This document shows positions 20,421 to 52,509 of a stretch of 64,000 bases of DNA, in pieces. A program made the translations under genes and the position numbers. The stretch's first letter is position 1, and each line of letters begins with the position of its first letter. The notes under the pieces are model-generated. The model saw nothing but the letters and a program-made list of their open reading frames with translations, was not told the origin of the DNA and made no database searches. This DNA is from a virus: positions 64,001-128,000 of IMG/VR virus record IMGVR_UViG_3300044716_000883; one strand, written 5' to 3'.

Positions 20421-23400
20421 ATGAAAAAAGCGATTTTATCGTTACTTCTTTCTGCACTATTTTTAGTGGGATTTGGTCAGGTTACCACATCCTCTATCTC
20501 TGGTGTTGTTAAGAATGAAAAGCAAGAAGTACTAGCAGGTACCGTTGTAGAAGCAATTCACGTTCCTACAGGTACAAAGTACAAGACCGTTGCAAACAAG
20601 AATGGTGTTTATGTGTTACCTGCTGTTAGAGTAGGTGGTCCATATGTAATCCATGCTTCGTTTGTAGGATTTAAAAAGAGTGAAGAAACAGATGTAAACG
20701 CTCAATTGGGTGTTACTACAAACGTTGACTTTGCTTTAGTGGATGAGAAATCAACTCTTAAAGAAGTAGTTGTGACTGGAACAAAATCTGTTTTATTTTC
20801 TAAAGAAAAAACAGGTGCTGCTCAACAATTTGGAAGAAGAGAATTAACTACTATTCCAATTACAGGTGCTAGAACAATTGATGGTATTACCAAGTACAAC
20901 CCATTTGGTAATGGTAACTCATTTGGCGCACAAGACTCTCGTTTGAACAACTTCACAATCGATGGTTCTCAATTTAACAACAACTTCGGTTTAGGTTCTT
21001 CAGCAGCAGCAGGTGGCCGTACAGGCGCTTCAGCAATTTCACTTGACGCGATTGATCAATTACAAGTTAACGTAGCACCATTTGACATTCGTCAATCTGG
21101 ATTTACAGGTGCTGGTATTAACGCTGTAACAAGATCAGGTACAAATGAAATTGAAGGATCCGTTTATCAAACACAACGTGATAATTCATCTCGTTATGTA
21201 GGTGATAACGCTAGAGGAACAAAAGTAACTGCATCTAAATTTGATGAAAAAGTACAAGGTTTTAGATTAGGTTTACCTGTTATTAAAAACAAATTATTTT
21301 TGTTTGGTAACTATGAAGGTATTACAAGAACTGAACCTGGTACAACTTGGATTTCAGCAGGATCACCACTTACAGGTACTCAAGTATCTCGTGTGAAATA
21401 TTCTGACATGGATGCTTTATCTAAATTCATGAAAGAAAAATTTGATTATACAACTGGTCCTTGGGAAGGTTACTCAAATCAGAATTCATCAAATAAATTT
21501 TTGATTCGTGCTGACTGGAATATTAACGACAAAAATAAATTAACTGCTCGTTATGTTCACCATAATTCATCTGCTGAAATTAACGTTTCAAACTCTCAAT
21601 CAGCAGGTGCTGGTAATAGAACAACTCAATTCAATGCTATGAGTTTCCAAAATAGTGGTTACATTATTATGGATAACACTCGTTCAGCAGTATTAGAATT
21701 GAACTCTAAAATCTCTAACACTTTACACAATAGTTTAATCGTTTCTTACGATAAGCAAATTGAAGATAGAGCTTATATGAGTAACATATTCCCAACTATT
21801 GATATCAGAGACGGTTCAGCAACTTACACTTCTGTAGGTTTCGATCCATTTACTCCAGATAACAAATTAGATTATTGGACACTTAATGTTACTAACAACT
21901 TAACTAAGTATTTAGGTAAACATACAGTAGTTGGTGGTTTTAACTTCCAACAATACCAATCTAATAACTTATTCTTCCCAGCATCTAATGGTGTTTATAT
22001 CTTCAATAGTTTGAATGACTTCTACACTGCCGCTAACCAATCATTAGCTAATGGTGGTCGTCCATCAACATTTGCTCCTGCTCGTTTCCAATTTAGATAC
22101 TCAGCATTACCTAGTGGAGCTGCACCAATGCAAACTTTAGAATCTTATAGAACCGATTTATATTTACAAGATGAATATAACGTAAATAAGAATTTAAAGT
22201 TAACTGCTGGTATTAGAGCAAATATTATTTCAATTAACAACACAGCATTAGAAAATAAAGCAGTAACTGCTATGACTTTTGCTAATGGTGAAAAATGGAA
22301 TACAGGTGTAATGCCTGAAACACAGTTATTATTCGAACCTCGTTTCGGATTTAACTGGGATGTAAAAGGTGAAAAGAAAACACAAGTTAGAGGTGGTACT
22401 GGTATTTTTACTGGTCGTCCTCCTTATGTATTCTTATCTAACCAAATTGGTAATACAGGTGTATTATCAGGATTTATTGATGTATCAGGTGCAGCAGCTG
22501 CTAATTATGGCTTTACTGCTAACCCAAATCAATACTTTATTCCTTCAACACCAACTTTACCATCTACATTTGATTTAGCTTTAACAGATGCTAATTATAA
22601 GTTTCCTCAAGTTTGGAAAAATAACTTAGCTGTTGATCAAAAATTACCTTGGTTAGGTTTAATTGCTAGTGTTGAATTATTATACAATAGAACTTTAAAT
22701 GCAGTTCATTATTACAACGCTAACTTAGATGCTCCTGTTGGTAAATTAGGTGGTGTTGATCAAAGACCACTTTATGCAGGTAATGATAACGGTGTTCGTG
22801 TAAACGATAACGTTTCAATGGCTGCAGTATTAACTAATAGAAATGGTGCCTTTAACAAATCAGCAACATTTAAATTAGAAAAACCAGCATCTAAAGGTAT
22901 TTGGGGTTATGTAGCTTATACAGCTGCAGACGCACAAGACTTTATGGACGCAGGTTCAATTGCTAGTGGTTCTTGGCAATCAGCATTATCAGTTAATGGT
23001 AATAATGATTTAGGTTTAACAACTTCATCATTTGTAGTTAGAAATCGTATCGTAGGTTTATTAGGATACCGTTTAGACTATGGTAAGAAATATGGTGGTG
23101 CTACTACATTCACATTAGGATATGTAGGTTCACAAAACAATCCATTCTCTTATATCGTAGCAGGTGACTTAAATGGTGACAGAGTAAATAATAATGATTT
23201 AGTATTTGTACCAAATAAAGCATCAGACATTCGTTTTGCATCTTTAACAGTAGGTACAACAGTTTATACTGAAGCTCAACAACAAGAAGCTTTTGATAAA
23301 TTCATTGATCAAGATCCTTACTTATCAACTCGCAGAGGTCAATATGCTGAAAGAAATGCAATTGCATTACCTTTCCTACATAGATTTGACTTATCAGTTG

Positions 23401-23693
23401 CTCAAGATTTCTTTGTAAAGATTAAAGGTAAGCGCAATGCTTTCCAAATTAGAGCTGATATCTTGAACTTTGGTAATATGTTAAATAATAATTGGGGTGT
23501 ATCTCAACGTGCAGGTGCTCCACAATTGTTGAACTTTGTAAGCCGCGACGCTGCAGGTGTTCCAACATACAGATTATCAACACAGAGAGATGCTACAAGT
23601 ACTTTCTTAGCAAGAGACACATATCAATTCAACTCATCAGTATTTGATGTATGGACTGCTCAATTAGGTATTCGTTACACTTTCGGTAAGTAA
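20421..23693 (+). CDS. TonB-dependent outer-membrane receptor, Oar-like, with N-terminal carboxypeptidase-regulatory-like domain
   Basis: Signal peptide MKKAILSLLLSALFLVGFG/Q; LKEVVVTG; plug motifs NNFTIDG..NN.FG, ISLDAIDQLQV.. PFDIRQSGFTGAGINAVTRSGTN; beta-barrel ending QLGIRYTFGK. Confidence 0.9.
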   Translation: MKKAILSLLLSALFLVGFGQVTTSSISGVVKNEKQEVLAGTVVEAIHVPTGTKYKTVANKNGVYVLPAVRVGGPYVIHASFVGFKKSEETDVNAQLGVTTNVDFALVDEKSTLKEVVVTGTKSVLFSKEKTGAAQQFGRRELTTIPITGARTIDGITKYNPFGNGNSFGAQDSRLNNFTIDGSQFNNNFGLGSSAAAGGRTGASAISLDAIDQLQVNVAPFDIRQSGFTGAGINAVTRSGTNEIEGSVYQTQRDNSSRYVGDNARGTKVTASKFDEKVQGFRLGLPVIKNKLFLFGNYEGITRTEPGTTWISAGSPLTGTQVSRVKYSDMDALSKFMKEKFDYTTGPWEGYSNQNSSNKFLIRADWNINDKNKLTARYVHHNSSAEINVSNSQSAGAGNRTTQFNAMSFQNSGYIIMDNTRSAVLELNSKISNTLHNSLIVSYDKQIEDRAYMSNIFPTIDIRDGSATYTSVGFDPFTPDNKLDYWTLNVTNNLTKYLGKHTVVGGFNFQQYQSNNLFFPASNGVYIFNSLNDFYTAANQSLANGGRPSTFAPARFQFRYSALPSGAAPMQTLESYRTDLYLQDEYNVNKNLKLTAGIRANIISINNTALENKAVTAMTFANGEKWNTGVMPETQLLFEPRFGFNWDVKGEKKTQVRGGTGIFTGRPPYVFLSNQIGNTGVLSGFIDVSGAAAANYGFTANPNQYFIPSTPTLPSTFDLALTDANYKFPQVWKNNLAVDQKLPWLGLIASVELLYNRTLNAVHYYNANLDAPVGKLGGVDQRPLYAGNDNGVRVNDNVSMAAVLTNRNGAFNKSATFKLEKPASKGIWGYVAYTAADAQDFMDAGSIASGSWQSALSVNGNNDLGLTTSSFVVRNRIVGLLGYRLDYGKKYGGATTFTLGYVGSQNNPFSYIVAGDLNGDRVNNNDLVFVPNKASDIRFASLTVGTTVYTEAQQQEAFDKFIDQDPYLSTRRGQYAERNAIALPFLHRFDLSVAQDFFVKIKGKRNAFQIRADILNFGNMLNNNWGVSQRAGAPQLLNFVSRDAAGVPTYRLSTQRDATSTFLARDTYQFNSSVFDVWTAQLGIRYTFGK

Positions 23694-23713: not shown

Positions 23714-23747
23714 ATAGGTGGCTTGGCTCGTCCAGGTCACCTATTTA
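23714..23747 (+). terminator. Hairpin after the TonB receptor gene, overlapped by ATATTTAT/TATTTAT motifs
   Basis: ATAGGTGGCTTGG-CTCGT-CCAGGTCACCTAT followed by TTT. Confidence 0.5.
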
Positions 23748-23756
23748 TATTCACGT

Positions 23757-24512
23757 ATGATCAAGTTATTAGATTTAATTAAGGAAATACAAGGTAAACC
23801 AAAAGCCATATTCCTAGCGGGTCCCGCTGGTTCTGGTAAAACGTTTACTTCTGCTCAAATAATACCGAAAAAACTAACGGTAGTTAATGTCGATGACACT
23901 TACGAAGAATTATTGAAAGCAGCAGGTTTAGGCACTAAAATCGCAGATTTCACGCAGGATCAATTGTCGCAAGCGGCTAAATTAATGGGTCAAGCTCAAA
24001 AGCAAACTAAGGAAAAATATGCACAATTAACTGGGGATAAACAAGACATTATTGTTGATGGTACAGGTGCAGCTAGTAAGCCTTTATTAAAGAAAAAACA
24101 AGAATTAGAAGCGTTAGGATACGATACAATGATGGTCATGATTTGGGTTTCACCTTACACATCATTAGAACGTAATGCTAGTCGCGATCGTGCATTGCAA
24201 CCATCTATTGTTTTAAGAACATGGGTTGGTGTAAATCAAAATATTGATACATACAGACAAGTATTTGGTGATAATTTTATTTTAATTAACAATGATCCAA
24301 ATGGTAAATTAGAATATGATCCTGCTTACGCTAAAGAGAAATTCTTTAAAACAGTTAAAGGTAGCGGTAAAGTTTATACACCAGATGAGAAAGCTAAACG
24401 TGATAAAGAAATAGCAGACTTAAATGCTAATCTACAACAACTAATACAATCAACACCAGAATTTACATCTATGGGTGATGCTAAATCTAAAATAAATAAT
24501 TTTATAAAGTAA
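23757..24512 (+). CDS. P-loop kinase (zeta-toxin/AAA_33-like) with MIKLLDLIKE leader
   Basis: Walker A AGPAGSGKT, VNVDD, IIVDGTG, LERNASRDR; the in-frame ATG at 23757 follows the motif. Confidence 0.7.
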   Translation: MIKLLDLIKEIQGKPKAIFLAGPAGSGKTFTSAQIIPKKLTVVNVDDTYEELLKAAGLGTKIADFTQDQLSQAAKLMGQAQKQTKEKYAQLTGDKQDIIVDGTGAASKPLLKKKQELEALGYDTMMVMIWVSPYTSLERNASRDRALQPSIVLRTWVGVNQNIDTYRQVFGDNFILINNDPNGKLEYDPAYAKEKFFKTVKGSGKVYTPDEKAKRDKEIADLNANLQQLIQSTPEFTSMGDAKSKINNFIK

Positions 24513-25450
24513 TGAATTTAGGACAATATCTAGTACAACAACTGTTAGAAGCAGAACAAACAACAATTGCTTTGTTTCCTGGTGCTTTTAAACCACCACA
24601 TAAAGGTCACTTTGCTGTAGTTAAAAAATTATTAGAAAATGCTGATCAAGTAACTGTACTAATATCACCTAAAACACGTGAAGGTATTACTGCAGATGAA
24701 AGTGTTGCTGTATGGGAATTATATAAAACATTATTAGATGGTTCTGTTGAAATAAGAGTTGCAGCAGAAAATCCAGTTAGAGAAACATACGACGTAATTA
24801 AAAACAATCCTGATACTAATTTTATAGTAGCATTCGGTAAAAACGATGCTGACAGATTTAAACAAATGGGTAAAAACCCAAATGCAAAAGTATTTGATGC
24901 TGGTAATTTTGATGGTGCAAACGCAACTGGATTAAGAGCAGCATTATTAGCTAATAATGAAGACGCAATTAAAGAATACCTCCCAGAAGGTATTGATATA
25001 GCTGATTTCTTAATGGCTTTAAGTAAAACTAAAAAAGAGGAACCGCCAGTAGAAGAACCTGAAGCTGCTCCTTTAAAAGAAAGTAAGTTAAACGAAAGCG
25101 AAACTGCAACCATTGAAGAATTTATAAAATATGCTATTAAAAACTTGGGAATTCAAAATCCCCCCCGTAACTTATCCTTATCATACGATACAAATAAAGC
25201 AAAGGAAATGAGGAGTTTTGGATATTTTAGCCCAAATGATAATAAAATATGGGTTTATTGCGGAAATAGAAACATGGCTGACATTTTGAGAACGCTAGCG
25301 CATGAACTAGTACACCGCAAGCAAGATGAGGATGGAAGAATAAGCTACGAAAGTGGCAAAACTGGAAGCGACATTGAAAATGAAGCAAACGCTAAAGCGG
25401 GAGTATTACTACGCGACTTTGGCAAACAACATGAGGAAATTTATCAATAG
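24512..25450 (+). CDS. HxGH nucleotidyltransferase (cytidylyltransferase-like) fused to a C-terminal HExxH zincin-like domain
   Basis: FPGAFKPPHKGH at the N-terminus; LRTLAHELVHRKQ and ENEANAKAG at the C-terminus. Confidence 0.75.
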   Translation: MNLGQYLVQQLLEAEQTTIALFPGAFKPPHKGHFAVVKKLLENADQVTVLISPKTREGITADESVAVWELYKTLLDGSVEIRVAAENPVRETYDVIKNNPDTNFIVAFGKNDADRFKQMGKNPNAKVFDAGNFDGANATGLRAALLANNEDAIKEYLPEGIDIADFLMALSKTKKEEPPVEEPEAAPLKESKLNESETATIEEFIKYAIKNLGIQNPPRNLSLSYDTNKAKEMRSFGYFSPNDNKIWVYCGNRNMADILRTLAHELVHRKQDEDGRISYESGKTGSDIENEANAKAGVLLRDFGKQHEEIYQ

Positions 25451-25452
25451 TT

Positions 25453-25920
25453 ATGTATACAATTTACTGTGACATGGACGGTGTCCTTGTCGATTTTGAA
25501 AAAGGTTATTATGACGCCACAGGCGCTCATACAAAACAATTTGCTAAAGGCGATAACAATTTTTGGGAGCCTATAGACGCTAAAGGTCCATCTTTTTGGG
25601 CTAATTTACCCTGGATGCCTGATGGGCAAGAATTATGGCGTTATATTAAAAAATATAAGCCAAATATTTTATCCTCTCCATCACGTAGTTCAACATCTAA
25701 AGTAGGTAAAGAAGCATGGTTAAAAATGCATCTACAAAACAGCTACAAAAAAGCATATTTCTACCCAAGAAATCAAAAACAATTATTCTCAGATGTAAAT
25801 AGAATATTGATTGATGATTTACCAAATACCATTGAAGAATGGAATGCTAAAGGAGGTACAGGTATATTACACACCTCAGCAGCCAATACAATAAAGGAAC
25901 TTAAAAAATTAGGGTTATAA
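25453..25920 (+). CDS. HAD-family 5'(3')-deoxyribonucleotidase-like phosphatase
   Basis: YCDMDGVLVDF, ILSSP, GKEAW, ILIDD..NTIEEWNAKGG. Confidence 0.85.
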   Translation: MYTIYCDMDGVLVDFEKGYYDATGAHTKQFAKGDNNFWEPIDAKGPSFWANLPWMPDGQELWRYIKKYKPNILSSPSRSSTSKVGKEAWLKMHLQNSYKKAYFYPRNQKQLFSDVNRILIDDLPNTIEEWNAKGGTGILHTSAANTIKELKKLGL

Positions 25921-26504
25921 TGGAAGAATCAAAACTACAACGGGAGTTTAATCAACGCGACGTTCAACGTATGCGTAATATCATTACTAAAGATTATAAC
26001 GCTAAAACCACTACTCAAATTGGTTATTCTAAATCTCAAACAGAACATAAAGAAGGTGATGTTTGGGAAGAAGGTGGTAAACAATGGACTTTAAAAAATG
26101 GTATTAAACAAACCATAACTCGTTTTGATGAATTAAAAAAAGTAATATCGTTACCATTAGCATGTCCTAAATGCAGTAAGGCTATGCAGTCAACTACGTT
26201 GAATAAAAAGATGTGGCCTATACATAAAATGTGTTTTGATTGCGTTGTTAAAATGGAAACTGACCTAAAACGTACAGGGAAATATGAAGAATATGCACGT
26301 AATATAGTTAATCGTGGCGCTACAACATACATTAAAGATTTAGAAGACGCTTTACTAGAATTAGCATTATACGAAGACAACGAAAGTTTTGTAACTGAAG
26401 CGGGAGATGTTGAAAAATGGACTGGTAAAGGTATAAATAAAGAGAAACTCACCCAAGATATACAGGAACACATACAAGAAATCAAGGATCAAATTAAAGA
26501 TTAA
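25920..26504 (+). CDS. Hypothetical protein with CxxC..CxxC zinc ribbon
   Basis: CPKC...CFDC. Confidence 0.6.
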   Translation: MEESKLQREFNQRDVQRMRNIITKDYNAKTTTQIGYSKSQTEHKEGDVWEEGGKQWTLKNGIKQTITRFDELKKVISLPLACPKCSKAMQSTTLNKKMWPIHKMCFDCVVKMETDLKRTGKYEEYARNIVNRGATTYIKDLEDALLELALYEDNESFVTEAGDVEKWTGKGINKEKLTQDIQEHIQEIKDQIKD

Positions 26505-26538
26505 TATTTATAGCCATAAACTACTATAAATTTCTTTA

Positions 26539-26817
26539 ATGGAGAATATATATTCCGTTGTTATTACAGCAATTACCGTATTAGGAGGCACAACAGCGTT
26601 TCGTTTTTATGAAAAACGCGCTATGCGTAAAGAACGTGATGATGAATTTATCCGTCATGACTGCAAAGACCGCATCACAAAATTAGAAGCATTATTAGAA
26701 AGATCATCTCGAGAAAAAGATGAGATGCGCCAACAGATTTTAGATTTAGTATCTGAGGTTGCTTCATTACGTACCGAAATTAAATACCTAACCGATAGAC
26801 GCACTGGAGGCATATGA
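26539..26817 (+). CDS. Single-TM plus coiled-coil protein (holin-like candidate)
   Basis: N-terminal hydrophobic helix IYSVVITAITVLGG followed by a heptad coiled coil; ATATTTAT upstream. Confidence 0.4.
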   Translation: MENIYSVVITAITVLGGTTAFRFYEKRAMRKERDDEFIRHDCKDRITKLEALLERSSREKDEMRQQILDLVSEVASLRTEIKYLTDRRTGGI

Positions 26818-27044
26818 TAAAGCTATCAGAACTTATCCTTAAAGAAGGACCAGCCGAATACCCATCAAATCACAAACCAGGAATGCGCGTAACTAAAGGC
26901 GGTTCAATGTGTGCTAATTGTGAATATCATGAAGATGAAGGTAATTTATGTAATAACAAATATTGGTTAAAATGGCACGATGGTGATGCAAATATTCCTT
27001 ACCCTGCTAATGAATATTGTTGCAACTGGTGGCATGAAGAATAA
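26814..27044 (+). CDS. Small Cys-rich protein with MIKLSELILKE leader
   Basis: CANC..C..YCCNWW. Confidence 0.55.
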   Translation: MIKLSELILKEGPAEYPSNHKPGMRVTKGGSMCANCEYHEDEGNLCNNKYWLKWHDGDANIPYPANEYCCNWWHEE

Positions 27045-27047
27045 ATT

Positions 27048-27698
27048 ATGATATACTACTCAGAATATGATTTAGTCTTTATTACTATTCTTAAGAATGG
27101 TACTAATGCCTTTGAAAAACTATTTACATATGTTATGGGTAAAGAGCCTGAACCATTATTTTTTACAAGGCAACCAACAATTCATATGACTGTTGTTAGA
27201 AATCCATATGAAAGATTATTAACACAGTTTTATCACGCAAATAGACAACAACTTTGGAAAGAATTTAAGTATACGGTACACCACCCTTTTTTTAGAAAGT
27301 GGGTTAAAGAAACCTATAGTAATGGTTATAATGGAGAGGATGGCCATTTATATACTCAATCCCAATTTTTACAATTTGCTGAAATTCAAATGGAATATAA
27401 AGTATTTAAAACAGAAGAATTTTCTGCACATGAATTATTCTTTTTTTTAAATTTAACAGAAGAACGTAAGGCTGAAATAGATAACGAATATTCAAAAATA
27501 ATAATTGAGTTAGAAACAAGCGCTCATCATGCTACTAATAGTATAAAACAAGGAGTCTGGCAGAGTTTTTATGATGCTGAAACTATTAAGATATGTAACA
27601 ATCATTATGCAGACGATTTTAAAGCATTTAACTACGAAATTATTAAACCTGAGGAATTTAAACCTATATATTTTGAATATAAAACTACCCTGATTTAG
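27048..27698 (+). CDS. Sulfotransferase family 2-like protein
   Basis: ITILKNGTNAF (PAPS loop-like), VVRNPYERL, HLYTQ, YADDFKAFNY. Confidence 0.7.
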   Translation: MIYYSEYDLVFITILKNGTNAFEKLFTYVMGKEPEPLFFTRQPTIHMTVVRNPYERLLTQFYHANRQQLWKEFKYTVHHPFFRKWVKETYSNGYNGEDGHLYTQSQFLQFAEIQMEYKVFKTEEFSAHELFFFLNLTEERKAEIDNEYSKIIIELETSAHHATNSIKQGVWQSFYDAETIKICNNHYADDFKAFNYEIIKPEEFKPIYFEYKTTLI

Positions 27699-27714
27699 TT
27701 AAATATTTATTATT

Positions 27715-28125
27715 ATGATCAAATTAACAGAAATATTAGACGAAATACTAACCGAAAAACTTTGCAAAAAGGGTAGGGCTTACTATAATCGTCGTAGAGC
27801 TGCTGGTGAAAAACCATCAGCTTACCTTTCTGGTCGTGCTGTTAAAGTGTGTAAGGGTTTAATGGAAGAAGATGATTTAGATATGCACGAATCGCTTCGT
27901 GATTGGTTTAAAAAAGAAGATTGGGTTCGTATTGATACAGCAGGCAACATAACTGGACCTTGTGGTACAATGAAAAAAGGTAATAAAACGACTCGTTGTT
28001 TACCTCGTGCTAAAGCAAACAGCTTATCTAAAGCTGAACGCGCTGCTACATCAAAGAAAAAAGCAGCATCTGATAAGCAATTTGTACCTAATACTAAAAA
28101 AGCAAAAGTAAAACTTAATAAGTAA
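27715..28125 (+). CDS. Basic Cys-containing protein with MIKLTEILDE leader (DUF5872-like)
   Basis: LRDWFKKEDWV..PCG..RCLPRAKA..LSKAER; DUF match is from memory. Confidence 0.5.
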   Translation: MIKLTEILDEILTEKLCKKGRAYYNRRRAAGEKPSAYLSGRAVKVCKGLMEEDDLDMHESLRDWFKKEDWVRIDTAGNITGPCGTMKKGNKTTRCLPRAKANSLSKAERAATSKKKAASDKQFVPNTKKAKVKLNK

Positions 28126-28129
28126 ACTA

Positions 28130-28666
28130 ATGAAAATATCAGAATTAAGACAATTAATTAAAGAAACCGTTGAAGAAGCATTCTTCATTGGTGAAGATGA
28201 TATCGATAATGTAGAGTGTAAAAAGTGTGGATGGAAATGGAAATTATCAAATGGTGGTGAAAATCCATATCTTTGCCACAAATGCGATTATGATAATAGT
28301 TATGCTTACAACGATAGTATAGACGAATACGACGTAGAAAATGCAGACGATATAAAAGAATTTGTTGAATTCATGCGTGAATATACACAGCAACTAAACG
28401 AAGCTGATTGTGACTGCCTATTAGAAGCTAAATATCAGGGCCGTACAGTGCCATTAGGTAAACCAATGCGCGGTGATTCTAAAAAATTCAAAGTATACGT
28501 TAAAAACCCTAAAACTGGCAAAGTAGTTAAAGTTAACTTCGGTGCTAAGGGAATGAATATTAAGAAAAACAACCCAGTAAGACGTAGAGCATTCAGGGCA
28601 AGACATAACTGCTCAAATCCAGGACCACGTACTAAAGCTAGATACTGGTCATGTAGAAAATGGTAG
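28130..28666 (+). CDS. Leader + zinc ribbon + basic RARHxC..ARYWSC domain (DUF5754-like)
   Basis: CKKC..CHKC; KKFKVYV..KVNFG..RRRAFRARHNC..KARYWSCRKW; DUF match is from memory. Confidence 0.55.
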   Translation: MKISELRQLIKETVEEAFFIGEDDIDNVECKKCGWKWKLSNGGENPYLCHKCDYDNSYAYNDSIDEYDVENADDIKEFVEFMREYTQQLNEADCDCLLEAKYQGRTVPLGKPMRGDSKKFKVYVKNPKTGKVVKVNFGAKGMNIKKNNPVRRRAFRARHNCSNPGPRTKARYWSCRKW

Positions 28667-28705
28667 TTCAAATTTTAACATATTTATACATATAAACACA
28701 ACAAA

Positions 28706-29548
28706 ATGAATATTACAGAAGTACGTAACGTCATCAAACAAGTTATTGCTGAAGCAATGAGTAAAGAAGGTGGCTTACCTAAAAGCGGTGGAAAATTAGT
28801 ACACCTTAAGAAAGAATTAGCTAGCTTAAAGAACATGAGAGAATCTTTAGGTCAATTACAAATCGCTGAAGGCGGTGAGCAATCATTCGTAGCTGAATAT
28901 GCACATATGCAAAAATTCGTTAACGAATTAGAAAAAATCAAAACTGCTCATGCTAAATTAGCTGAAATGTTAGACAATCAAATTTCTGAAGTTGAAGGTA
29001 AAGTTTCATCTGAGACTGAAAAGATCAAAGAAATGGTTGGTTTAATCGAAAAAGCACCTAAAGCTCCTAAGAAAGACGCTAAGAAAGCTCCTGCTAAAAA
29101 AGACGATAAAAAAGCAGAACCTAAAAAAGCTGAAAAGAAAGAAGAGCCTAAGGCTGACGACTCAAAAAAAAAAGCTAAAAAATTAGACGAAGCATCTTTC
29201 TCAAGTACTGATGTTAATGCTATTTTAAAAGCTGCTAGAGCTGCTGTTGAAGCAGGTAAAGAGGTAACTGTTGATGGTATTAAAATAGGAAAGGTAGTAT
29301 CTGGATTAGGAAGATTTATTCCTGCTGATGGTAGTCAATCTTTAAAAATTATGGATTACGTTGGTGAACCGGAAAAAATTGTAATTGATGGAGTACCTGC
29401 AGAATTAAAACCTTACGAACCAAAAAGCGAACCTCGAGTTGACACAAGGACTCCAGAAGAAAAAGCAAAAGCACAAGCTGCGTTTGATGACAGATATGGA
29501 CCAGGTGGAGGATACGATACAGCATTTGGAAGATACACAGGCGATTAA
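28706..29548 (+). CDS. Putative head-internal protein with coiled coil and Lys/Ala-rich linker
   Basis: Leader MNITEVRNVIKQVIAE; KKAPAKK linker; LDE site before a distal domain. Confidence 0.5.
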   Translation: MNITEVRNVIKQVIAEAMSKEGGLPKSGGKLVHLKKELASLKNMRESLGQLQIAEGGEQSFVAEYAHMQKFVNELEKIKTAHAKLAEMLDNQISEVEGKVSSETEKIKEMVGLIEKAPKAPKKDAKKAPAKKDDKKAEPKKAEKKEEPKADDSKKKAKKLDEASFSSTDVNAILKAARAAVEAGKEVTVDGIKIGKVVSGLGRFIPADGSQSLKIMDYVGEPEKIVIDGVPAELKPYEPKSEPRVDTRTPEEKAKAQAAFDDRYGPGGGYDTAFGRYTGD

Positions 29549-29559
29549 TATAAATAAAA

Positions 29560-30000
29560 ATGATTAAATTACTTGACATATTAGCCGAACGCGATTTATC
29601 CGCTAAGGAAGAAAAAATAGTTAAAGCATTAAAGAAAACAGGGAAGTTTAAAAAGAACGACCCTGCTCTTTATGCTATTGCTGCTTCAAAAGCTGAAGGA
29701 TTAGATCCAGTAGGCAAAGAAGATGACGACATCAACAACGATGGTAAGGTAGATAAGACAGATAAATACTTAGCTAATCGTCGTAAAGCAGTAGCTGCTA
29801 ATATTAAAGAAGGTGATCATGAAGTATCTATGGCTGTATCTAGTCTAGAAGCAATTGCAGAAGCAATTATCGAATTAAGACAAAAACTTGGCAATACTGA
29901 ACGTAATATTCCAGGATGGATTCAAGACCACATTGCTAAAGCAGAAAACTACATTGAGCAAGCAGCTCAAGGTTTTCACGAACTAAAACATAATGGATAA
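29560..30000 (+). CDS. Putative head-internal protein with MIKLLDILAE leader and EF-hand/dockerin-like DxNxDGxVD motif
   Basis: DDDINNDGKVDKTDKYLANRRKAV. Confidence 0.55.
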   Translation: MIKLLDILAERDLSAKEEKIVKALKKTGKFKKNDPALYAIAASKAEGLDPVGKEDDDINNDGKVDKTDKYLANRRKAVAANIKEGDHEVSMAVSSLEAIAEAIIELRQKLGNTERNIPGWIQDHIAKAENYIEQAAQGFHELKHNG

Positions 30001-30514
30001 AAAATTAATATTAGAAAAATACATTAAAGTAGCTGTTCGTAAAGCACTTCAAGAAGAAGAAGCTAGACAACAGAAAGCTACTAAAGCGATGTATCTAGTA
30101 TATCGTTTTCCTGGTTTAAAAAAAATAATGGAAGACTTAATGTCTCCATCTTTTGGTCGCTTCATCACAGATGTTGCTGTTGTAGCTCCAAAACCAACAA
30201 CATTCTCAGCTAAATTAATTAACGAACAAGATTTCGGAATTATATACAATGGTAAAGGTAAATTTACCGTTAAAGTAGCAGGTAAAAAATACAACGTCCA
30301 AAATTTAGGTGAATTAGAAAGAGCTCAACAAGCAATAGCTGATTTATTAGAATTAAACTACGCTATTGATGAAAAAGTAGCAGGCGGAGCTGAAGCTCCA
30401 GCTGCAGATGCAGGTGCTGAAGCATTTAGTGCAGCCGCAGCCGCTCCAGCAGGTGAAACACCAGCAGAAACTCCAGCAGAAGAAGAAACTCCTGAAGAAA
30501 CCCCAGCAGCATAA
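29993..30514 (+). CDS. Hypothetical protein with acidic Ala/Pro/Glu-rich tail
   Basis: ORF; tail ETPAETPAEEETPEETPAA. Confidence 0.55.
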   Translation: MDKKLILEKYIKVAVRKALQEEEARQQKATKAMYLVYRFPGLKKIMEDLMSPSFGRFITDVAVVAPKPTTFSAKLINEQDFGIIYNGKGKFTVKVAGKKYNVQNLGELERAQQAIADLLELNYAIDEKVAGGAEAPAADAGAEAFSAAAAAPAGETPAETPAEEETPEETPAA

Positions 30515-31650
30515 TGACAGTTATAGATAAAATATTACGTGAATGGTCATTTAGATGCCATGATGGGATTGTTGATATCAACGATCCTATTAAACTGTCT
30601 ATATTAAATGAAATACTTGGTTTTAATTTAGATGAAGTGAGACAACCATATGAATCTTTAACAGGAGCAGCTAAAGAAGAAGCTGATAAGTTAATTGAAT
30701 TATTTAACTTAACTAAAGACAATATTCAAAAACAGACCTCTAAAAGAATAATAATTTTATCTGATATACCTAGAAATGAAGTTTTTAAGAAATTACAAGA
30801 TTTAGGATATAAACAAGATAGAACTATTTCTGGCTCATCAGCAGGTGGATTTATAACACCAGAAGGTATAGAAATTATAGTTAAATCTGAGACATCTTCT
30901 AAAATAGGTGGCGCTGGAGTAGGTAATGAAAGATTTTTTGTAGATGCAATAAATAACCTTATTCAAGAAAGTGATGGTTCTGTTACTGTTACTATCAACG
31001 GTGGTGGTAAAACTTTAAAATATGCTAACATAACTGAAGCCAAACATGTTGGTAAAGAAGGTGAGAAAAAAGGATGGAAAGCAGATGCTTTATTAATAGC
31101 AGGAAATGAAACATATCCAATTTCTTTAAAAGAAGATGGTCCATTCCGTTGGGCTAGTGCTATGGGAGATCTTAAAGATCTTTACACAACACTACTTACT
31201 AAAGCTAGTAAAGATGAAATACCAAATCTTCAATTAAAAACAGACCCTGAAAATCCTAGGGTACTTCAGATGTATAATCCTAGAACAAATTCACCTTATG
31301 GTAGAATATTTGTAACAGATGTACCTCAATTAACTCAAGCAGAAAATATAAATAAAATTATTTTTGGAGCTGATAATGCTATTGTTGTACAGCGAACCTT
31401 TACTGAATCTGATTTTGCACTGACTGGAAATACTATAAATGTAACTGCTACTAAAATTATTACATCAATTGAAGATTTAAGTCCTGAAGATTATCCTATA
31501 GTAGAATTTGAACGTAATGCTTCAAAAGCAACTCAAACAAGTGGATTAACAGGTAGGGGTATTATAATAAGAATATCACCTAAAGGAAGAATGGATAAAG
31601 CAGGATCTAAAGCTAATAATTTAATATTAAACTATAACGATATAATGTAA
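30514..31650 (+). CDS. Putative restriction-endonuclease-fold (PD-(D/E)XK) nuclease with cleavable N-terminal leader
   Basis: GVGNERF, KADALL..PISLKE catalytic-like pattern; leader ending LNE..NLDE. Confidence 0.5.
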   Translation: MTVIDKILREWSFRCHDGIVDINDPIKLSILNEILGFNLDEVRQPYESLTGAAKEEADKLIELFNLTKDNIQKQTSKRIIILSDIPRNEVFKKLQDLGYKQDRTISGSSAGGFITPEGIEIIVKSETSSKIGGAGVGNERFFVDAINNLIQESDGSVTVTINGGGKTLKYANITEAKHVGKEGEKKGWKADALLIAGNETYPISLKEDGPFRWASAMGDLKDLYTTLLTKASKDEIPNLQLKTDPENPRVLQMYNPRTNSPYGRIFVTDVPQLTQAENINKIIFGADNAIVVQRTFTESDFALTGNTINVTATKIITSIEDLSPEDYPIVEFERNASKATQTSGLTGRGIIIRISPKGRMDKAGSKANNLILNYNDIM

Positions 31651-31653
31651 AAT

Positions 31654-31914
31654 ATGGAACAATTTAACCCATCAGACAAAATAACACTAGACGTACCTTT
31701 ATTTATCCGTCTATTAGAATATGCTCGCGAAGACGCTAAAACCGATATGGATTTACACAATGTAGCTGAAAAAGCAATCGTAGCAAGTGAAACTGGAAAG
31801 ACATTAACTATGGCTGACTATGATGGTTTAGTAGCGGGTAATAGTGAAGATCAAGAAATGAACGAAATAAAAAGAATGATTGAGTTAGCTAACATCAAGT
31901 CTTTCTTTAACTAA
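31654..31914 (+). CDS. Small conserved phage protein with C-terminal MNEIKRMIELANI motif
   Basis: ITLDVPLFIRLLEYAREDA..DLH..AE. Confidence 0.55.
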   Translation: MEQFNPSDKITLDVPLFIRLLEYAREDAKTDMDLHNVAEKAIVASETGKTLTMADYDGLVAGNSEDQEMNEIKRMIELANIKSFFN

Positions 31915-31994
31915 CATATAGACAGATTCACATTCTGTCGCATTAAATGATATTATATAGTTGTGGTGCACCTAAAAAGTGTGCCACCTTCTAT

Positions 31995-32025
31995 TTTGAA
32001 AGGGCAAAATTTTTTATTATATTTA
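31995..32025 (+). promoter_or_regulatory. Bacteroidota-type promoter candidate with GGCAAAAT box
   Basis: TTTG (31995) -N19- TATATTTA (32018); GGCAAAAT at 32002. Confidence 0.55.
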
Positions 32026-32047
32026 CATGTTTAATTTAATTTAATTT

Positions 32048-33352
32048 ATGAATAAGAAAATCGTAATTGTAGGAGCAGGTGTAGCAGGTATTAATGCCGC
32101 TACCAAATTAGTAGATAATGGCTATCCTGGTGAGCTAATCACTATTATAGACAAAGGTAATGACCCAATTAACCGCTTACCTGAAGAGGTAATGACGGGG
32201 ATGCTTGGTGCTGGTGGATGGAGTGATGGAAAATTAACATACCATACCTCAATTGGTGGCCAGCTAGCTAAGTACTGTGGTGAAGAAAAAGCCATGGAGT
32301 TAATGAAACAAGTAGTAGATAACTTTACTCGTTTCCACCCCACCCCAGAAGAAATATTCATGTCTGATCCTCAAGAGGAACCTGAATTTATTAAACCATA
32401 CTTTGGTTTGAGAATGTTTCCTGTATGGCATATTGGATCTAATTTCTTGCATGAAATTGCTAAAAACTGGTATCAATATTTAGTTGATAAAGGTGTTGAT
32501 TTCAAATGGAATTTTGAGGTTTATAGTATTGATTTTGAAAATAATAGTATAAATGCTATTAAACGTAGCGAAGAAGCAGATCCATTAGAAGCATTCATTT
32601 CATATGATGAACTAATATTTGCAGTAGGTAAATCGGGTATTAACTTTGCTCAATCATTATCAGACAAATATGAATTTCCAACTGAACCCAAATCAGTACA
32701 AATTGGAGTTCGATTTGAAGCACCACAGAAGTACTTCCAAAAATTAATAGATGTATCGTACGACTTTAAACTATACCAGAAATTTGATAACGTATCTTTA
32801 CGTTCGTTCTGTACTAATAATAATGCAGCTTATGTTGCTGTGGAAGAGACTTATGGGGATGTAAGTTACAATGGTCACGCTAAAAAAGGTGAAGAATTTA
32901 GAAACGATATGACTAACTTTGGTATTCTGATGGAAATTAAGGGTATTGAAGATCCATTTGCTTGGAGTAGAGATGTAGTACAAAAACTACAAATTGACAA
33001 TACAGGATTATATTACTCACCATCTCGTAAACCAGCTCTTACATCTGAAGGAGTAACAGTAAGTGCTACCCAAATTGACTCATTAGAATTATTTAAGGAA
33101 GTAATGGGTGAATATGCTGATTATGTTATTAATTTTATTGATGATATGAATAAAGTGTTTGAATTTAATGATGATTGGGGAATGTATATTCCTGAAGTAA
33201 AATACTTATCACCTGAACCCTTAGTAAACTACGAAGATTTATCATTAACAGGATACTCAAATGCACACTTTGCTGGTGATGCTCTATCAGCTAGAGGTAT
33301 TACAGTATCAGGTGCACACGGAATTTATATTGCAGAAAATTTAATAAAATAA
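32048..33352 (+). CDS. FAD-dependent oxidoreductase/dehydrogenase
   Basis: IVIVGAGVAG Rossmann motif, GMLGAGGWSDGKL, AVGKSG, FCTN, FAGD...RGI. Confidence 0.85.
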   Translation: MNKKIVIVGAGVAGINAATKLVDNGYPGELITIIDKGNDPINRLPEEVMTGMLGAGGWSDGKLTYHTSIGGQLAKYCGEEKAMELMKQVVDNFTRFHPTPEEIFMSDPQEEPEFIKPYFGLRMFPVWHIGSNFLHEIAKNWYQYLVDKGVDFKWNFEVYSIDFENNSINAIKRSEEADPLEAFISYDELIFAVGKSGINFAQSLSDKYEFPTEPKSVQIGVRFEAPQKYFQKLIDVSYDFKLYQKFDNVSLRSFCTNNNAAYVAVEETYGDVSYNGHAKKGEEFRNDMTNFGILMEIKGIEDPFAWSRDVVQKLQIDNTGLYYSPSRKPALTSEGVTVSATQIDSLELFKEVMGEYADYVINFIDDMNKVFEFNDDWGMYIPEVKYLSPEPLVNYEDLSLTGYSNAHFAGDALSARGITVSGAHGIYIAENLIK

Positions 33353-33353
33353 T

Positions 33354-33590
33354 ATGTCAGAAACAAAAAAATTAAAAACACAAGACGGATCAATAGTATA
33401 TTATTGGGAAGGTAAAATGCATAATTGGGATGGACCAGCATATATCCCCCAGGGTAACAAACGTGCATCTGAATATTGGTTATTCGGAATAAAATATTCT
33501 AAAGACCAATGGGAAGATAGAAAGAAAGATGTTAATGGACAACCATTTTACAAAACAGCAGCTGGTAAAGCAGCAGGTGCTAGAGTTTAA
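33354..33590 (+). CDS. Small hypothetical protein (HNWDGPA repeat type)
   Basis: GKMHNWDGPAY..EYWLFG. Confidence 0.6.
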   Translation: MSETKKLKTQDGSIVYYWEGKMHNWDGPAYIPQGNKRASEYWLFGIKYSKDQWEDRKKDVNGQPFYKTAAGKAAGARV

Positions 33591-33617
33591 GCAAAATAAA
33601 GGTTATAAATTCAATAC

Positions 33618-33863
33618 ATGAGTAGAGGAAGACCAGCAGTAATAGAAACAGTAGAGCCACCACGTAAATATACTCGTGTATTTGAAGATGAATTTACCGT
33701 TGAAACATGGACATACGATTTAAATAAATTTCATGGTCCTATTAACGTTGATATTAAATATAAGGCGGGTGCTGAAAAGGCTATTAAACAACAAATAAAG
33801 CAAGCTAAGCAGGAGAAAAAGACAGCACGTCAAATGAAAAAAATAAACGAACGAAACAAATGA
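33618..33863 (+). CDS. Small basic hypothetical protein
   Basis: ORF; GCAAAAT box upstream at 33591. Confidence 0.55.
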   Translation: MSRGRPAVIETVEPPRKYTRVFEDEFTVETWTYDLNKFHGPINVDIKYKAGAEKAIKQQIKQAKQEKKTARQMKKINERNK

Positions 33864-34378
33864 GAATAGGATTAGCAGGTACAATGTCTGTAGGTAAAAC
33901 TACATTAGCAAAAGCATTAGGTGAATTAGATCAATTTAAAGATCATAATGTACAAACTGAGCGTAGTAAATACTTACGTGATTTAGGCATTCCATTAAAT
34001 ACAGATTCTACATTAAATGGTCAATTTGTATTTTTAGCAGAACGTGCTACTGAATTATTATATCCAAATATAATTACAGACAGAACAATATGGGATGTTT
34101 GTGCATTTACATTCTCAGCTAAATCAATTGATTGGTTTGCTAAACGTTCATTTGTTGAAGCTGCTATGATGCTTCGTGAACAATATGATGTAGTATTTTA
34201 TGTATCGCCTGAAGGCGTACCTATTGAAGATAATGGTGTACGTACTATTGATGCTGAATATCGTAATAAAATCGATTGGGCTATTCGTGAGTCATTAGAA
34301 GAATATAAACCTAATAAATTAGTATATATCAAAGGTACAACAGAGGAACGTATTGCTACAATTTTACAAAACCTATAA
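33860..34378 (+). CDS. P-loop nucleoside/nucleotide kinase (AAA_28/NadR-kinase-like)
   Basis: GTMSVGKTTL, TERS, ITDRTIWD, YDVVFY, IEDNGVR. Confidence 0.75.
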   Translation: MRIGLAGTMSVGKTTLAKALGELDQFKDHNVQTERSKYLRDLGIPLNTDSTLNGQFVFLAERATELLYPNIITDRTIWDVCAFTFSAKSIDWFAKRSFVEAAMMLREQYDVVFYVSPEGVPIEDNGVRTIDAEYRNKIDWAIRESLEEYKPNKLVYIKGTTEERIATILQNL

Positions 34379-34403
34379 TATTTATATGCACAACAATAAC
34401 AAA

Positions 34404-35441
34404 ATGAAAGTAACAGAACTACAAGAAATTATTCGTAACGTTATTAAAGAGGCGTTAAATGAAGATCAAGCTGCTGACAAAGCAGCACAGGACGCTGAAA
34501 AAGCATCTGTACAGAAGCAAATAGCTGCCCTTAATAAAAAGAAATCAGAACTAAATACAAACAAACCATCTGCAGAAGATAAACCAGCGCACGATGCTGA
34601 AAGACTTGCTGTGGATAAAAAACTTCAAGCTTTAAATAAAAAAACACAAAAATTAAATAAACCAGGCATTTCAGCACTTGAATTAGATGAAATGGCAAAC
34701 GTATCAGTACGTTATCAATTAGCTGGTGATATTAATGCTGATGATTTTAAAGGTAAGAAAAATAGAATTATTACTGCTATGAAAGCCACAGGCGAACCTA
34801 TGGCAAAAATCGACGTAGCTGGTGAATTAGGATACGACAAACAAAATCCAATCAACTCTGATTTCATGGAACTTGTAGCTTCAGGTGTTATTGAACCAGC
34901 AGGTGAACAAAAAGCTCCACGTTTAACTCGTCCTGCATCTGATAAACCAAAGGGTGGTGAAGGTGAAGAAGATTTTGTTACTGGTGATTTAAGCGATGAA
35001 GAAGTAGATGCTATGTTTGCTAAAGCAAAAGCATCAGGTGATGATGAACCAGAAATTGGTGATATTGAAAAAGCAGATGTATCTGCTGCTAAAATGTCAG
35101 ATGCTGATTACGAAGCATTTATGAAAGTTTCTGATTTAGAAAATCGTTTAGCTTCTACAAAATCAAACATTTTAAAGTTAAAGAAAAGTAAAGGTGCTGC
35201 TGGTGATATTAGTGATAAACCATCAACTGAATTAGTACGTTTACGTGATTTAAAAGCATCATTAGAAAAACGTATTGATGATTTAGTAGCTGGATCTGAA
35301 TATTTACAAAAACGTCAAACCAAACTTACTGGTAAAGAATATACAAAACAACCACCAGAAGAAATTAACATTGCAGACGAAGAACCATTAGACGAGTGGA
35401 CTATGAATAGAATGCAATACTATGCAGGTATTAAAAAATAA
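34404..35441 (+). CDS. Putative head-internal protein with leader and C-terminal RMQYYAGIKK
   Basis: MKVTELQEIIRNVIKEALNE; internal LDE sites; ATATTTAT at 34378. Confidence 0.55.
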   Translation: MKVTELQEIIRNVIKEALNEDQAADKAAQDAEKASVQKQIAALNKKKSELNTNKPSAEDKPAHDAERLAVDKKLQALNKKTQKLNKPGISALELDEMANVSVRYQLAGDINADDFKGKKNRIITAMKATGEPMAKIDVAGELGYDKQNPINSDFMELVASGVIEPAGEQKAPRLTRPASDKPKGGEGEEDFVTGDLSDEEVDAMFAKAKASGDDEPEIGDIEKADVSAAKMSDADYEAFMKVSDLENRLASTKSNILKLKKSKGAAGDISDKPSTELVRLRDLKASLEKRIDDLVAGSEYLQKRQTKLTGKEYTKQPPEEINIADEEPLDEWTMNRMQYYAGIKK

Positions 35442-35445
35442 AAAT

Positions 35446-36138
35446 ATGTCAAAATTAAAAAAAGCATTACCTATTATTTTATTTGCTGTAATAGCAATAT
35501 TAATCGGTAGTGTATTATTTGAAAAGTGTAATAACAATGTTGAGCATAAAGCATTTTTATCTCAAATGGATAGTCTACACAAGGTAAATGATTCATTATT
35601 TGCTGAAATTGCTAAAGATGATGCTGAAATTGATTCTTTAGATTTAGTAGCTGTTGAATTACAATATAAAGTAGATCATCAAAAAGCTAAAGTTAAAACT
35701 ATTGTTGAGTATATTGAAGTAGAAAAAAACAACATTGATGGTTTTTCTAATCCTGAACTAGTAAGCTCATTTAACAATCGTTACCCAGCAGATACAATTA
35801 CTAACCCATTATTAGTAGCACAACCAGTATTAGTTAGCGCTGCTAAGGATTTAGTAGAATTAGATGGTGCTAAACAAATCATTGTACTTAAAGATAGCTC
35901 TATCAATACACTGGAAGCAAAAGTAACTGTTAAAGATAGTGTTATTGGAAAATATGCTAATAAAGAACTTAACTACAAAAATATTATCCTGAATAAAGAT
36001 AAAGAAATTACAGGATGGGAAGGACAATATCAAAAACTAGAATTACAATACAACAAGTTAAAAGTAAAATCTAAATTCCAACGCATAGGAAGCTATGTAG
36101 TAATTGGTGGATTAGCTTACTTGATGTTAGTAAAATAA
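35446..36138 (+). CDS. Coiled-coil protein with hydrophobic segments at both ends (spanin-like candidate)
   Basis: N-terminal hydrophobic helix followed by Cys; long coiled coil; C-terminal IGSYVVIGGLAYLMLV. Confidence 0.4.
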   Translation: MSKLKKALPIILFAVIAILIGSVLFEKCNNNVEHKAFLSQMDSLHKVNDSLFAEIAKDDAEIDSLDLVAVELQYKVDHQKAKVKTIVEYIEVEKNNIDGFSNPELVSSFNNRYPADTITNPLLVAQPVLVSAAKDLVELDGAKQIIVLKDSSINTLEAKVTVKDSVIGKYANKELNYKNIILNKDKEITGWEGQYQKLELQYNKLKVKSKFQRIGSYVVIGGLAYLMLVK

Positions 36139-36153
36139 CGACCCCACGCCCCC

Positions 36154-36207
36154 ACATAATTAGGCCTATTCGCAAGAATGGGCCTTCTTTATATATTTAT
36201 TATCATG
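36154..36207 (+). repeat. Copy 1 of a 54-bp terminator + ATATTTAT + ATG cassette
   Basis: ACATAATTAGGCCTATTC-GCAA-GAATGGGCCTTCTTTATATATTTATTATCATG. Confidence 0.85.
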
Positions 36208-36498
36208 AAACAGCAAATCAACGAAACTACAAGAATGCAGCAATTAGCTGGTATTCTTACTGAAGCGGCACCAGCAATGCCACCAGTACCTGGCCAAAAA
36301 CCTCAAATGCCTCCTGTTCCTGGTAAGTCATCCTCTGCCCCTTTAGATGATAAAAGAAAAGAAAAAGCAGCAGAAGCCTTTTTCCAAGCTAACGTAGAAT
36401 TGACAACATTAAAAAATAATAAACTTCTTAGTGATAGTGAAATTAAAACCTTAGAAGATCTTCTAGGTAAAGCTATAAATGCAATAAATAGTAAATAA
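36205..36498 (+). CDS. Small Pro-rich protein with INE..RMQQLAGILTE leader
   Basis: ATG 5 nt after ATATTTAT; the ORF-track start at 36178 lies inside the terminator. Confidence 0.6.
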   Translation: MKQQINETTRMQQLAGILTEAAPAMPPVPGQKPQMPPVPGKSSSAPLDDKRKEKAAEAFFQANVELTTLKNNKLLSDSEIKTLEDLLGKAINAINSK

Positions 36499-40942: not shown

Positions 40943-41535
40943 TGGATCTACAGGAGTATATCAAACAGTTAGTACAGCAAGAATTAGACGAAATGTCTGT
41001 TTCTGGTGATGCTGGTGGTTATTTAGCTCCAAACGCATTTTCTAAAAAAGGCCAAGGTAAAAATGCAGCGACTAAATATGCTGAAAAAATGGGCTTTAAA
41101 TTAGTTAAAAATCCTTCAATGAATAATGAAAGTAACTACGATAAAGCTTCTCAAAAAGGTCAAGCAAGTGGTTATACAGCAGCTAGTCCTTATACCGCTG
41201 GTGGAATTAAAGGAGATGATTATTATAAAAAAGAAAGTATGAAAGAATCATTAATAGACATTATTGAGCAAGAATTACTTAACGAAGTAACATACGGTAA
41301 ATTTAAAAAAGATGTTAAGTTCAGAACTAAATCTGAACAATTACATAAGGCTATTCGTGAAGTAAAACGCAAATTACAAGAAATTGATCGTATTGTTGAA
41401 TATACGTCTCGCATGAAGCAAGAATTAAGTGAAGAAGGTGGTGTTAATTATTGGAAAGCAACACAAAAGAATGTTGCTACTATCTCAGAAATGGTAAATC
41501 AACTTAACAATAAAATTAAAAACTTGAACCAATAA
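40942..41535 (+). CDS. Putative prohead-core protein
   Basis: Leader MDLQEYIKQLVQQELDE; internal MKE and LNE sites. Confidence 0.5.
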   Translation: MDLQEYIKQLVQQELDEMSVSGDAGGYLAPNAFSKKGQGKNAATKYAEKMGFKLVKNPSMNNESNYDKASQKGQASGYTAASPYTAGGIKGDDYYKKESMKESLIDIIEQELLNEVTYGKFKKDVKFRTKSEQLHKAIREVKRKLQEIDRIVEYTSRMKQELSEEGGVNYWKATQKNVATISEMVNQLNNKIKNLNQ

Positions 41536-50913: not shown

Positions 50914-50922
50914 AAATAGTAA

Positions 50923-52176: not shown

Positions 52177-52177
52177 A

Positions 52178-52507: not shown

Positions 52508-52509
52508 CA

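Follow-up and report, generated by a model that had tools for sequence, protein, structure and literature searches.

Introduction

Why would otherwise unrelated proteins of one phage begin with the same short peptide? The question arises in a 64,000-nucleotide stretch of the IMG/VR record IMGVR_UViG_3300044716_000883 (here the window, covering bases 64001-128000 of a genome of 179,381 bp), where a block of genes encodes recurring N-terminal leaders that end in a hydrophobic residue, any residue and Glu (hydrophobic-x-Glu). We find that these leaders are real and far beyond chance, and we hold it reasonably probable that they are capsid-loading propeptides of a T4-type head-assembly system. The capsid targeting sequence of T4 is the textbook portable address into a virus head and already serves as a delivery tool. 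To our knowledge, it has been characterised only in T4 and its close relatives.

The phage is T4-like and of Flavobacterium-type bacteria, and its genome, at 33% G+C, carries nearly every gene on one strand. Its major capsid protein is 61.7% identical to that of Flavobacterium phage vB_FspM_immuto (immuto below), 51.5% identical to that of Microcystis phage Mel-JY01, 39% to that of Rhodothermus phage RM378 and about 27% to those of T4-type phages. Genes are named by the first position of their coordinates in the window.

One leader on four unrelated proteins

A single leader of 10 to 11 residues, here called class A or the MIKL type, opens four unrelated proteins:

23757-24512, + strand: zeta-toxin or polynucleotide-kinase-like P-loop kinase (Pfam Zeta_toxin, 8.8e-10; AAA_33), with the class A leader in its first 10 codons (23757-23786)
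26814-27044, + strand: Cys-rich protein of 76 amino acids, class A leader at 26814-26846, kept in diverged relatives
27715-28125, + strand: basic protein of 136 amino acids with a weak DUF5872 match, class A leader at 27715-27744
29560-30000, + strand: protein of 146 amino acids, class A leader at 29560-29589

Every N-terminus quoted in the sequence-only reading that drew attention to this block is present where that reading had placed it. Its description of the leaders as near-identical holds for the four MIKL genes; two others that it had grouped with them belong elsewhere, 28130 to class B and 24512 to a separate class (both described below). When the first 10 residues of all called proteins of at least 40 amino acids were compared all against all, 13 pairs reached a score of at least 25, where two controls yielded about one each. 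Signal peptides, the MIKL set and 28130 with 28706 made up the highest-scoring pairs. A profile scan of the genome and its relatives, which had been suggested as a check, singled out the same genes: a class A profile built from relatives only picks exactly 29560 (20.4 bits), 27715 (18.8), 23757 (14.4) and 26814 (8.3), with the next-best N-terminus in the genome at 6.6 bits and the best of 749 internal-Met controls at 5.8. No similarity at E 0.01 was found among the leader-bearing proteins once their first 22 residues were removed, and Pfam and PHROGs gave no family assignment for leader proteins other than 23757, 24512 and 27715.

The resemblance lies in the peptide. The four MIKL leaders use differing synonymous codons and stand behind unrelated upstream DNA, and thus their conservation is at the peptide level. 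An origin in AT-rich start composition, in a translation-start constraint or in a shared DNA cassette finds some footing in the frequency of MIK starts (10 of 248 genes in this 33% GC genome) and in a string of upstream-plus-start DNA that 23757 shares with two small genes outside the block. We regard such an origin as barely credible, given the difference in upstream DNA among the four genes, synonymous sites that mostly vary as they do genome-wide, residues 6 to 10 that are specific to the set, and controls that never attain the observed scores. The shared string consists of TATATTCACGT(C) and then ATGATnAAnTTA; it is found at 23740-23768 of the window and at genome positions 60,096-60,125 and 60,595-60,624, and the two small genes are paralogous.

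An AlphaFold model of the kinase places the leader relative to a folded body. The mean predicted local distance difference test (pLDDT) score is 90, with 86-98 in the body; the leader is modelled as a helix over residues 2-11 with a pLDDT of 54, is not packed on the fold and is separated from the first strand by a short linker. On the strength of this low-pLDDT helix and the linker behind it, the leader would be an appendage lying outside the fold. The fold itself matches zeta/PezT, AvrRxo1 and Pnkp kinases, with template modelling (TM) scores of 0.66-0.72 against Pnkp kinase domains.

Other leader classes in the genome

Further leaders open other proteins of the genome. Class B, which is longer and amphipathic, is found on three proteins (28130, 28706 and 34404). 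Class C, with an Arg-x-Gln-x-Leu-Ala-Gly-Ile core and an Ile/Leu-x-Glu end, opens 36205, and a leader of a fourth class opens a nucleotidyltransferase. These genes, with one leader-bearing protein of the head module and one doubtful case, are:

28130-28666, + strand: protein of 178 amino acids, class B leader at 28130-28165 (13.8 bits against the class B hidden Markov model, HMM; family alignment)
28706-29548, + strand: protein of 280 amino acids, class B leader at 28706-28753 ending in Ile-Ala-Glu (10.1 bits against the class B HMM)
34404-35441, + strand: protein of 345 amino acids, 20-residue class B leader at 34404-34463
36205-36498, + strand: protein of 97 amino acids, class C leader at 36205-36264, with the ATATTTAT motif 5 nucleotides upstream
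24512-25450, + strand: cytidylyltransferase-like nucleotidyltransferase (PF01467), 13-residue leader of the fourth class at 24512-24550
40942-41535, + strand: head-module protein encoded between portal and protease, 17-residue leader ending in Leu-Asp-Glu
29993-30514, + strand: protein of 173 amino acids, possible long N-terminal helix module (only 1.3 bits against the class B HMM)

The leader of 28706 is kept in 15 distinct relatives and that of 40942 in 32, and 34404 is the likely start of its gene because the ATATTTAT motif overlaps the upstream ATG. The class B profile is informative for families but noisier within the genome, giving 13.8 bits for 28130, 10.1 for 28706 and 12.8 for one internal segment. 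Among the longer amphipathic variants listed in the earlier reading, those at 28706, 34404 and 40942 held up, and those at 3182 and 50572 did not: their first 40 residues are evenly conserved in 80 and 22 relatives, respectively, with no module boundary. We leave 29993 and 41669 undecided as leader-bearing proteins; in some relatives the reading frame of 29993, as called, begins no earlier than an internal Met some 32 residues downstream. A head-module protein of immuto (L001:38356) that looks like class B by eye was set aside, as it scores only 1.9 bits. The firm count of leaders in the genome is thereby 9 to 11 proteins, two of them recognisable enzymes, which falls short of the dozen or more first supposed. 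Enzymes are among the tagged proteins, as had been claimed, in the case of the kinase and the nucleotidyltransferase; the claim fails for the NT5C nucleotidase described below and for several other enzymes of the block, which are leaderless.

Three of these proteins have features of their own. The 28706 protein contains a Lys/Ala/Pro-rich tract (29080-29200) that resembles histone H1 tails and would suit a DNA-bound internal protein. In the C-terminal part of the 24512 protein (25200-25450), a His-Glu-x-x-His motif lies outside Pfam coverage and may mark a small metallopeptidase-like domain. The internal segment of 12.8 bits is a class B-like helix at the C-terminal end (43330-43429) of 41669, the 586-amino-acid protein that precedes the protease. 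T4 Alt and gp21 have C-terminal propeptides, and this helix may be one as well.

Leaders across related phages

The same leaders are found throughout 158 related loci, 80 of them anchored on the terminase (85-98% identity) and 78 on the nucleotidyltransferase (31-93%). Class A opens 192 proteins, whose bodies fall into 33 families. The class B leader, an amphipathic helix some 20 residues long, is carried by 92 proteins in 11 families, and class C by 38 proteins in 26 families. Across about 0.5 million residues, the sites that score at least 14 bits with a class A matrix comprise 177 N-termini and 3 internal positions, and an in-frame stop lies at most 15 codons upstream in 118 of 133 class A leader genes. 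The leader DNA pattern, searched in five complete relatives (161-183 kb), gave 14 matches on the gene strand, mostly in or near the same block, and none on the opposite strand or in a reversed control. Synonymous codon use in 105 distinct leader DNAs of relatives is mostly genome-like, with departures at Asp6 and Ile7, which argues that selection acts on the leader peptide. No near-identical DNA match to the leader block was found in the phage collection.

Not every copy of class C is N-terminal. Its motif occurs 58 times in the relatives, at 41 N-termini, at 15 C-termini and at two internal sites. One relative encodes a 147-amino-acid protein (L072:17026 region) that has the motif at its C terminus and not at its N terminus. 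Thus tagging may work from either end of a protein.

The leader boundary and polyprotein joints

Where does a leader end and a body begin? In the alignments the module boundary always lies directly behind hydrophobic-x-Glu, and the same motif joins the modules of polyproteins. In the 34404 family, which has 49 distinct class B leaders, M1, L6, I14 and E20 are invariant, and pairwise identity is about 0.2 straight after E20, where differing bodies start. In 48 homologues of the kinase, the most distant of them 28% identical, M1, L4 and E10 never vary, and neither do G27 and K28 of the P-loop; I2, K3 and L8 are nearly invariant. The 27715 family has the same body behind a class A or a class B leader depending on the phage, with the switch exactly after the Glu. 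Bodies can also be cut back behind a leader that stays: five relatives in the 29560 family drop about 45 residues right after it and one deletion variant is found in the 27715 family, so that losses in these two families reach 45 or more residues with the leader retained. At leader ends and joints, P3 is Ile, Leu, Val or Met. The modular tag proposed in the sequence-only reading is strongly borne out in the relatives, where leaders occur in dozens of families that are unrelated to one another, replace each other on a single body, persist after domain loss, and come and go on the NT5C enzyme described next.

A nucleotidase encoded within the block, behind the nucleotidyltransferase gene, extends this series:

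25453-25920, + strand: NT5C/HAD nucleotidase (PF06941), leaderless in this phage

Relatives encode NT5C either with a class A leader of its own or as a fusion in which it follows the kinase or the nucleotidyltransferase, and in 10 of 10 upstream contexts an Ile/Leu/Met-x-Glu motif lies 4 to 9 residues before the domain (chance per such window, 0.18). The nucleotidyltransferase leader is kept in some relatives, and others that are without it begin directly at the Rossmann strand; in polyproteins of relatives, which reach 1358 residues, this leader is internal and is flanked by two hydrophobic-x-Glu motifs. Because leader swaps, body deletions, NT5C contexts and polyprotein brackets all fall there, hydrophobic-x-Glu is the seam along which modules have been added or removed, exchanged, fused or separated.

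Relatives also have fusions of the P-loop kinase to a HAD phosphatase domain (L115:5867-7102, L103:5870-7201), in a kinase-then-phosphatase order that recalls T4 polynucleotide kinase/phosphatase. The cargo may include nucleic-acid end-repair enzymes.

Fusions of this kind could also be expected if the leaders were assembly or localisation tags of a cytoplasmic enzyme complex (for nucleotide, nicotinamide adenine dinucleotide (NAD) or RNA-repair chemistry) that is independent of the capsid, the Glu being merely part of a helix. The tagged enzymes, kinase, nucleotidyltransferase and HAD phosphatase, are of related chemistry and are fused together in relatives, and short N-terminal amphipathic helices load enzymes into bacterial microcompartments. 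However, small proteins of varied kinds that are not enzymes make up most of the tagged families, the module boundary lies exactly at a protease motif, and the scaffold tail has the class C motif (see below). No compartment shell genes were noticed among the Pfam results inspected, with no dedicated search run. We therefore judge an enzyme complex improbable, and prefer capsid loading.

Head genes, protease and scaffold tail

The leader-gene block stands directly upstream of the terminase, followed by the portal and the protease. The head genes run in the order terminase (36565), portal (38180), three small or medium genes, protease (43431), acidic scaffold (44185) and capsid protein, which parallels gp20, gp67, gp68, gp21, gp22 and gp23 of T4; the position of 40942 corresponds to that of gp67/gp68. 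Three products of this module matter most here:

43431-44039, + strand: prohead protease of the T4 gp21 family (PF03420, Peptidase_S77, 9.3e-33; PDB 5JBL, 3.6e-19)
44185-45291, + strand: acidic scaffold protein, whose last 10 residues (45259-45288) hold the class C motif
45326-46912, + strand: major capsid protein of the gp23 type, with a predicted maturation cut after Val-Thr-Glu59 (45494-45502)

PDB entry 5JBL is the solved structure of T4 gp21, and in an alignment of the window protease with gp21 the catalytic His76 (in a DHP motif) and Ser (in an SSRG motif) are invariant. The gp21-like protease that had been proposed at 43431 thus has its catalytic residues intact and is a true gp21-family enzyme. 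The cut of T4 gp23, Leu-Thr-Glu65/Ala66, aligns with Glu59/Ala60 of the window capsid protein, and both columns flanking it (Glu and Ala) are invariant, immuto included; T4 protein sequences were taken from the T4 record. A BLAST search of the window phage genome for a gp24-like capsid paralogue found none, and PHROGs gave no functional names for head-module or leader proteins.

The genome also encodes peptide-tailoring enzymes elsewhere, as would suit a leader that acts as the recognition sequence for a modifying enzyme, by the logic of ribosomally synthesized and post-translationally modified peptides (RiPPs). We consider this highly improbable, given that the leaders end in a protease motif, cluster beside head genes and, in one class, equal the scaffold tail.

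That tail ties the leaders to the head by more than position. The extreme C terminus of the scaffold carries the class C motif in the window phage, in immuto, in Mel-JY01 and in 14 of 14 relatives with a captured scaffold end, and hydrophobic-x-Glu lies a few residues before it in the window phage, immuto and Mel-JY01. This is a new point: the class C leader copies the tail in which the scaffold ends. Class C cargo probably binds the same partner as that tail, because the motif peptide matches the tail and would be severed by the protease in both settings. The identity of leader and tail thus offers a concrete binding hypothesis.

It also bears on whether the leaders address their proteins at all. 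They might instead be propeptides or linkers that the protease can remove and that have no targeting role, with the cargo entering by other contacts, or only partly. Such a role would accommodate the nucleotidyltransferase leader inside polyproteins, where an N-terminal address is impossible, the internal class A and class C copies at joints, and the leaderless NT5C beside its tagged partner. We find it unlikely, somewhat less so than the enzyme complex considered above, as all but 3 of 180 class A copies stand at an N-terminus, conservation extends to residue 4, a position that matters for targeting and not for cutting in T4, and class C equals the scaffold tail. Capsid loading thus remains the explanation that we favour.

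Two further observations concern the surroundings of these genes. In the Mel-JY01 head module, a gene for ribosomal protein S21 (L162:11185-11412) lies between the protease and the scaffold. In the window, the gene at 20421-23693, placed between an exonuclease gene and the leader block, encodes a TonB-dependent-receptor-like outer-membrane barrel of 1090 amino acids with a signal peptide (PF25183, 2.5e-46, and a CarboxypepD_reg domain).

Expression and the proposed mechanism

The ATATTTAT motif has 53 copies in the genome, 32 of which lie within 25 nucleotides upstream of a start codon (examples are at window 36553, 38152, 40059 and 44066). As it precedes terminase, portal, scaffold, sheath, tube and baseplate genes, it is likely to be a structural-gene promoter element. 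The motif also stands before the leader genes 27715, 28706, 34404 and 36205, and 42 nucleotides before 23757. Elsewhere, many small genes at genome positions 50,500-58,100, before the window, have a near-identical GTTATAAAATTAA..GTT string directly before the ATG, which may be an early promoter or a start-region cassette.

In the mechanism that we propose, genes adjoining the head module would be co-expressed with the head genes, and the short amphipathic leader would dock during prohead assembly, either on the core formed by the scaffold or on the inside of the shell. The gp21-family protease, whose T4 counterpart is active inside the assembled prohead, would then cut after the leader-ending hydrophobic-x-Glu, and at polyprotein joints. 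Mature proteins would stay inside the head after cutting and could exit with the DNA at infection, and the lineage would employ at least three interchangeable leader classes. We infer docking, cleavage, retention in the virion and injection from the T4 analogy, the aligned capsid cut, the scaffold-tail motif and the position beside head genes; on the same grounds, the leader proteins are probably loaded into the head like T4 internal proteins. A fuller picture, in which the lineage runs a plug-in cargo system with several interchangeable addresses, one of them copying the capsid-binding tail of the scaffold, and with enzyme polyproteins cut by the protease, is possible, and we put it forward tentatively.

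Several observations weigh against capsid loading. The boundary motif is a common one, with hydrophobic-x-Glu at 2.2% of positions, and one variant in the 26814 family has no Glu at positions 9 to 11. NT5C is leaderless in this phage, and no leaders were found on the neighbouring block enzymes, a sulfotransferase, a flavin adenine dinucleotide (FAD) oxidoreductase and an AAA_28 kinase. We rejected ATATTTAT as a sign that the leader genes in particular are late: it is no more frequent before them than before their neighbours, and it is also present in the region presumed to be early. Against the T4 IPI, IPII and IPIII tags and the gp24 propeptide, the leader profiles give 0 bits or less, in a comparison of 10-residue peptides that has little power. 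Class A was accordingly set aside as a homologue of the gp24 propeptide, which it resembles by eye, and we count the match to the T4 tag as one of pattern only because the profiles score about 0 bits. A literature search found no virion proteome for this lineage.

Comparison with known systems

T4 gp21 cuts after Leu/Ile-x-Glu, and in the 10-residue T4 tag, residues 4 and 7 serve targeting and residues 8 and 10 processing (PMC9026906). In T4, 10 residues are removed from the N terminus of gp24 and 65 from that of gp23 (PMC9958956). The internal proteins of T-even phages are diverse save for the tag, which is perhaps a general loading route in T4-like phages (PMC3012670, PMC9026906).

The leaders resemble the T4 capsid targeting sequence (on IPI, IPII, IPIII and Alt, and in the gp24 propeptide) in being short N-terminal peptides, of about 10-20 residues, on unrelated proteins. 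Class A has Leu4, Ile/Leu7, Leu/Ile8 and Glu10, and is thus hydrophobic at the T4 targeting positions 4 and 7, and a peptide end of Leu/Ile-x-Glu goes together with a gp21-family protease in both. Unlike T4, the window lineage has at least three coexisting leader classes, and in its relatives dozens of families bear leaders, P-loop kinases, nucleotidyltransferases and HAD phosphatases among them. Here modules also form polyproteins with the same motif at their joints, the capsid protein has Val at P3, and the system is known from sequence alone.

In the giant phages phiKZ, 201phi2-1 and SPN3US, many head proteins are cut after Glu by a diverged homologue of gp21, paralogues with identical N-terminal residues occur, and propeptides have several cut sites (PMC9026906, PMC5694885). 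Their motif is S/A/G-x-Glu and their propeptides often exceed 100 residues, whereas P3 here is hydrophobic, as in T4, and the leaders have 10 to 20 residues; leader ends and joints do not follow the S/A/G-x-Glu motif.

Peptide-directed loading of protein shells is known from the C-terminal coat-binding tail of the P22 scaffold, the cargo-loading peptides of encapsulins and the N-terminal amphipathic peptides of microcompartments. The leaders share with these a portable terminal address into a shell, class C as a scaffold tail and class B as an amphipathic helix of about 20 residues. We know of no maturation protease that cuts the tag at a fixed motif in the P22 scaffold, encapsulin or microcompartment systems.

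Our literature search, which covered leader motifs, Mel-JY01, immuto and capsid targeting beyond T4, found no paper on the leaders, the polyprotein joints or the scaffold-tail copy. New in this case are the scaffold-tail link and the fusion and fission series of NT5C.

Implications

If the leaders are indeed capsid-loading propeptides, the same loading logic would be widespread in abundant freshwater Bacteroidota phages, with several address classes and with enzymes as cargo. The capsid cargo set of such phages could be readable from sequence, and in the window phage it would include a zeta/polynucleotide-kinase-like kinase, a nucleotidyltransferase and a HAD phosphatase. Additionally, the leaders would supply new tags for loading proteins into capsids. 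They would also predict which proteins are delivered at the first moment of infection, such as counter-defence or repair enzymes.

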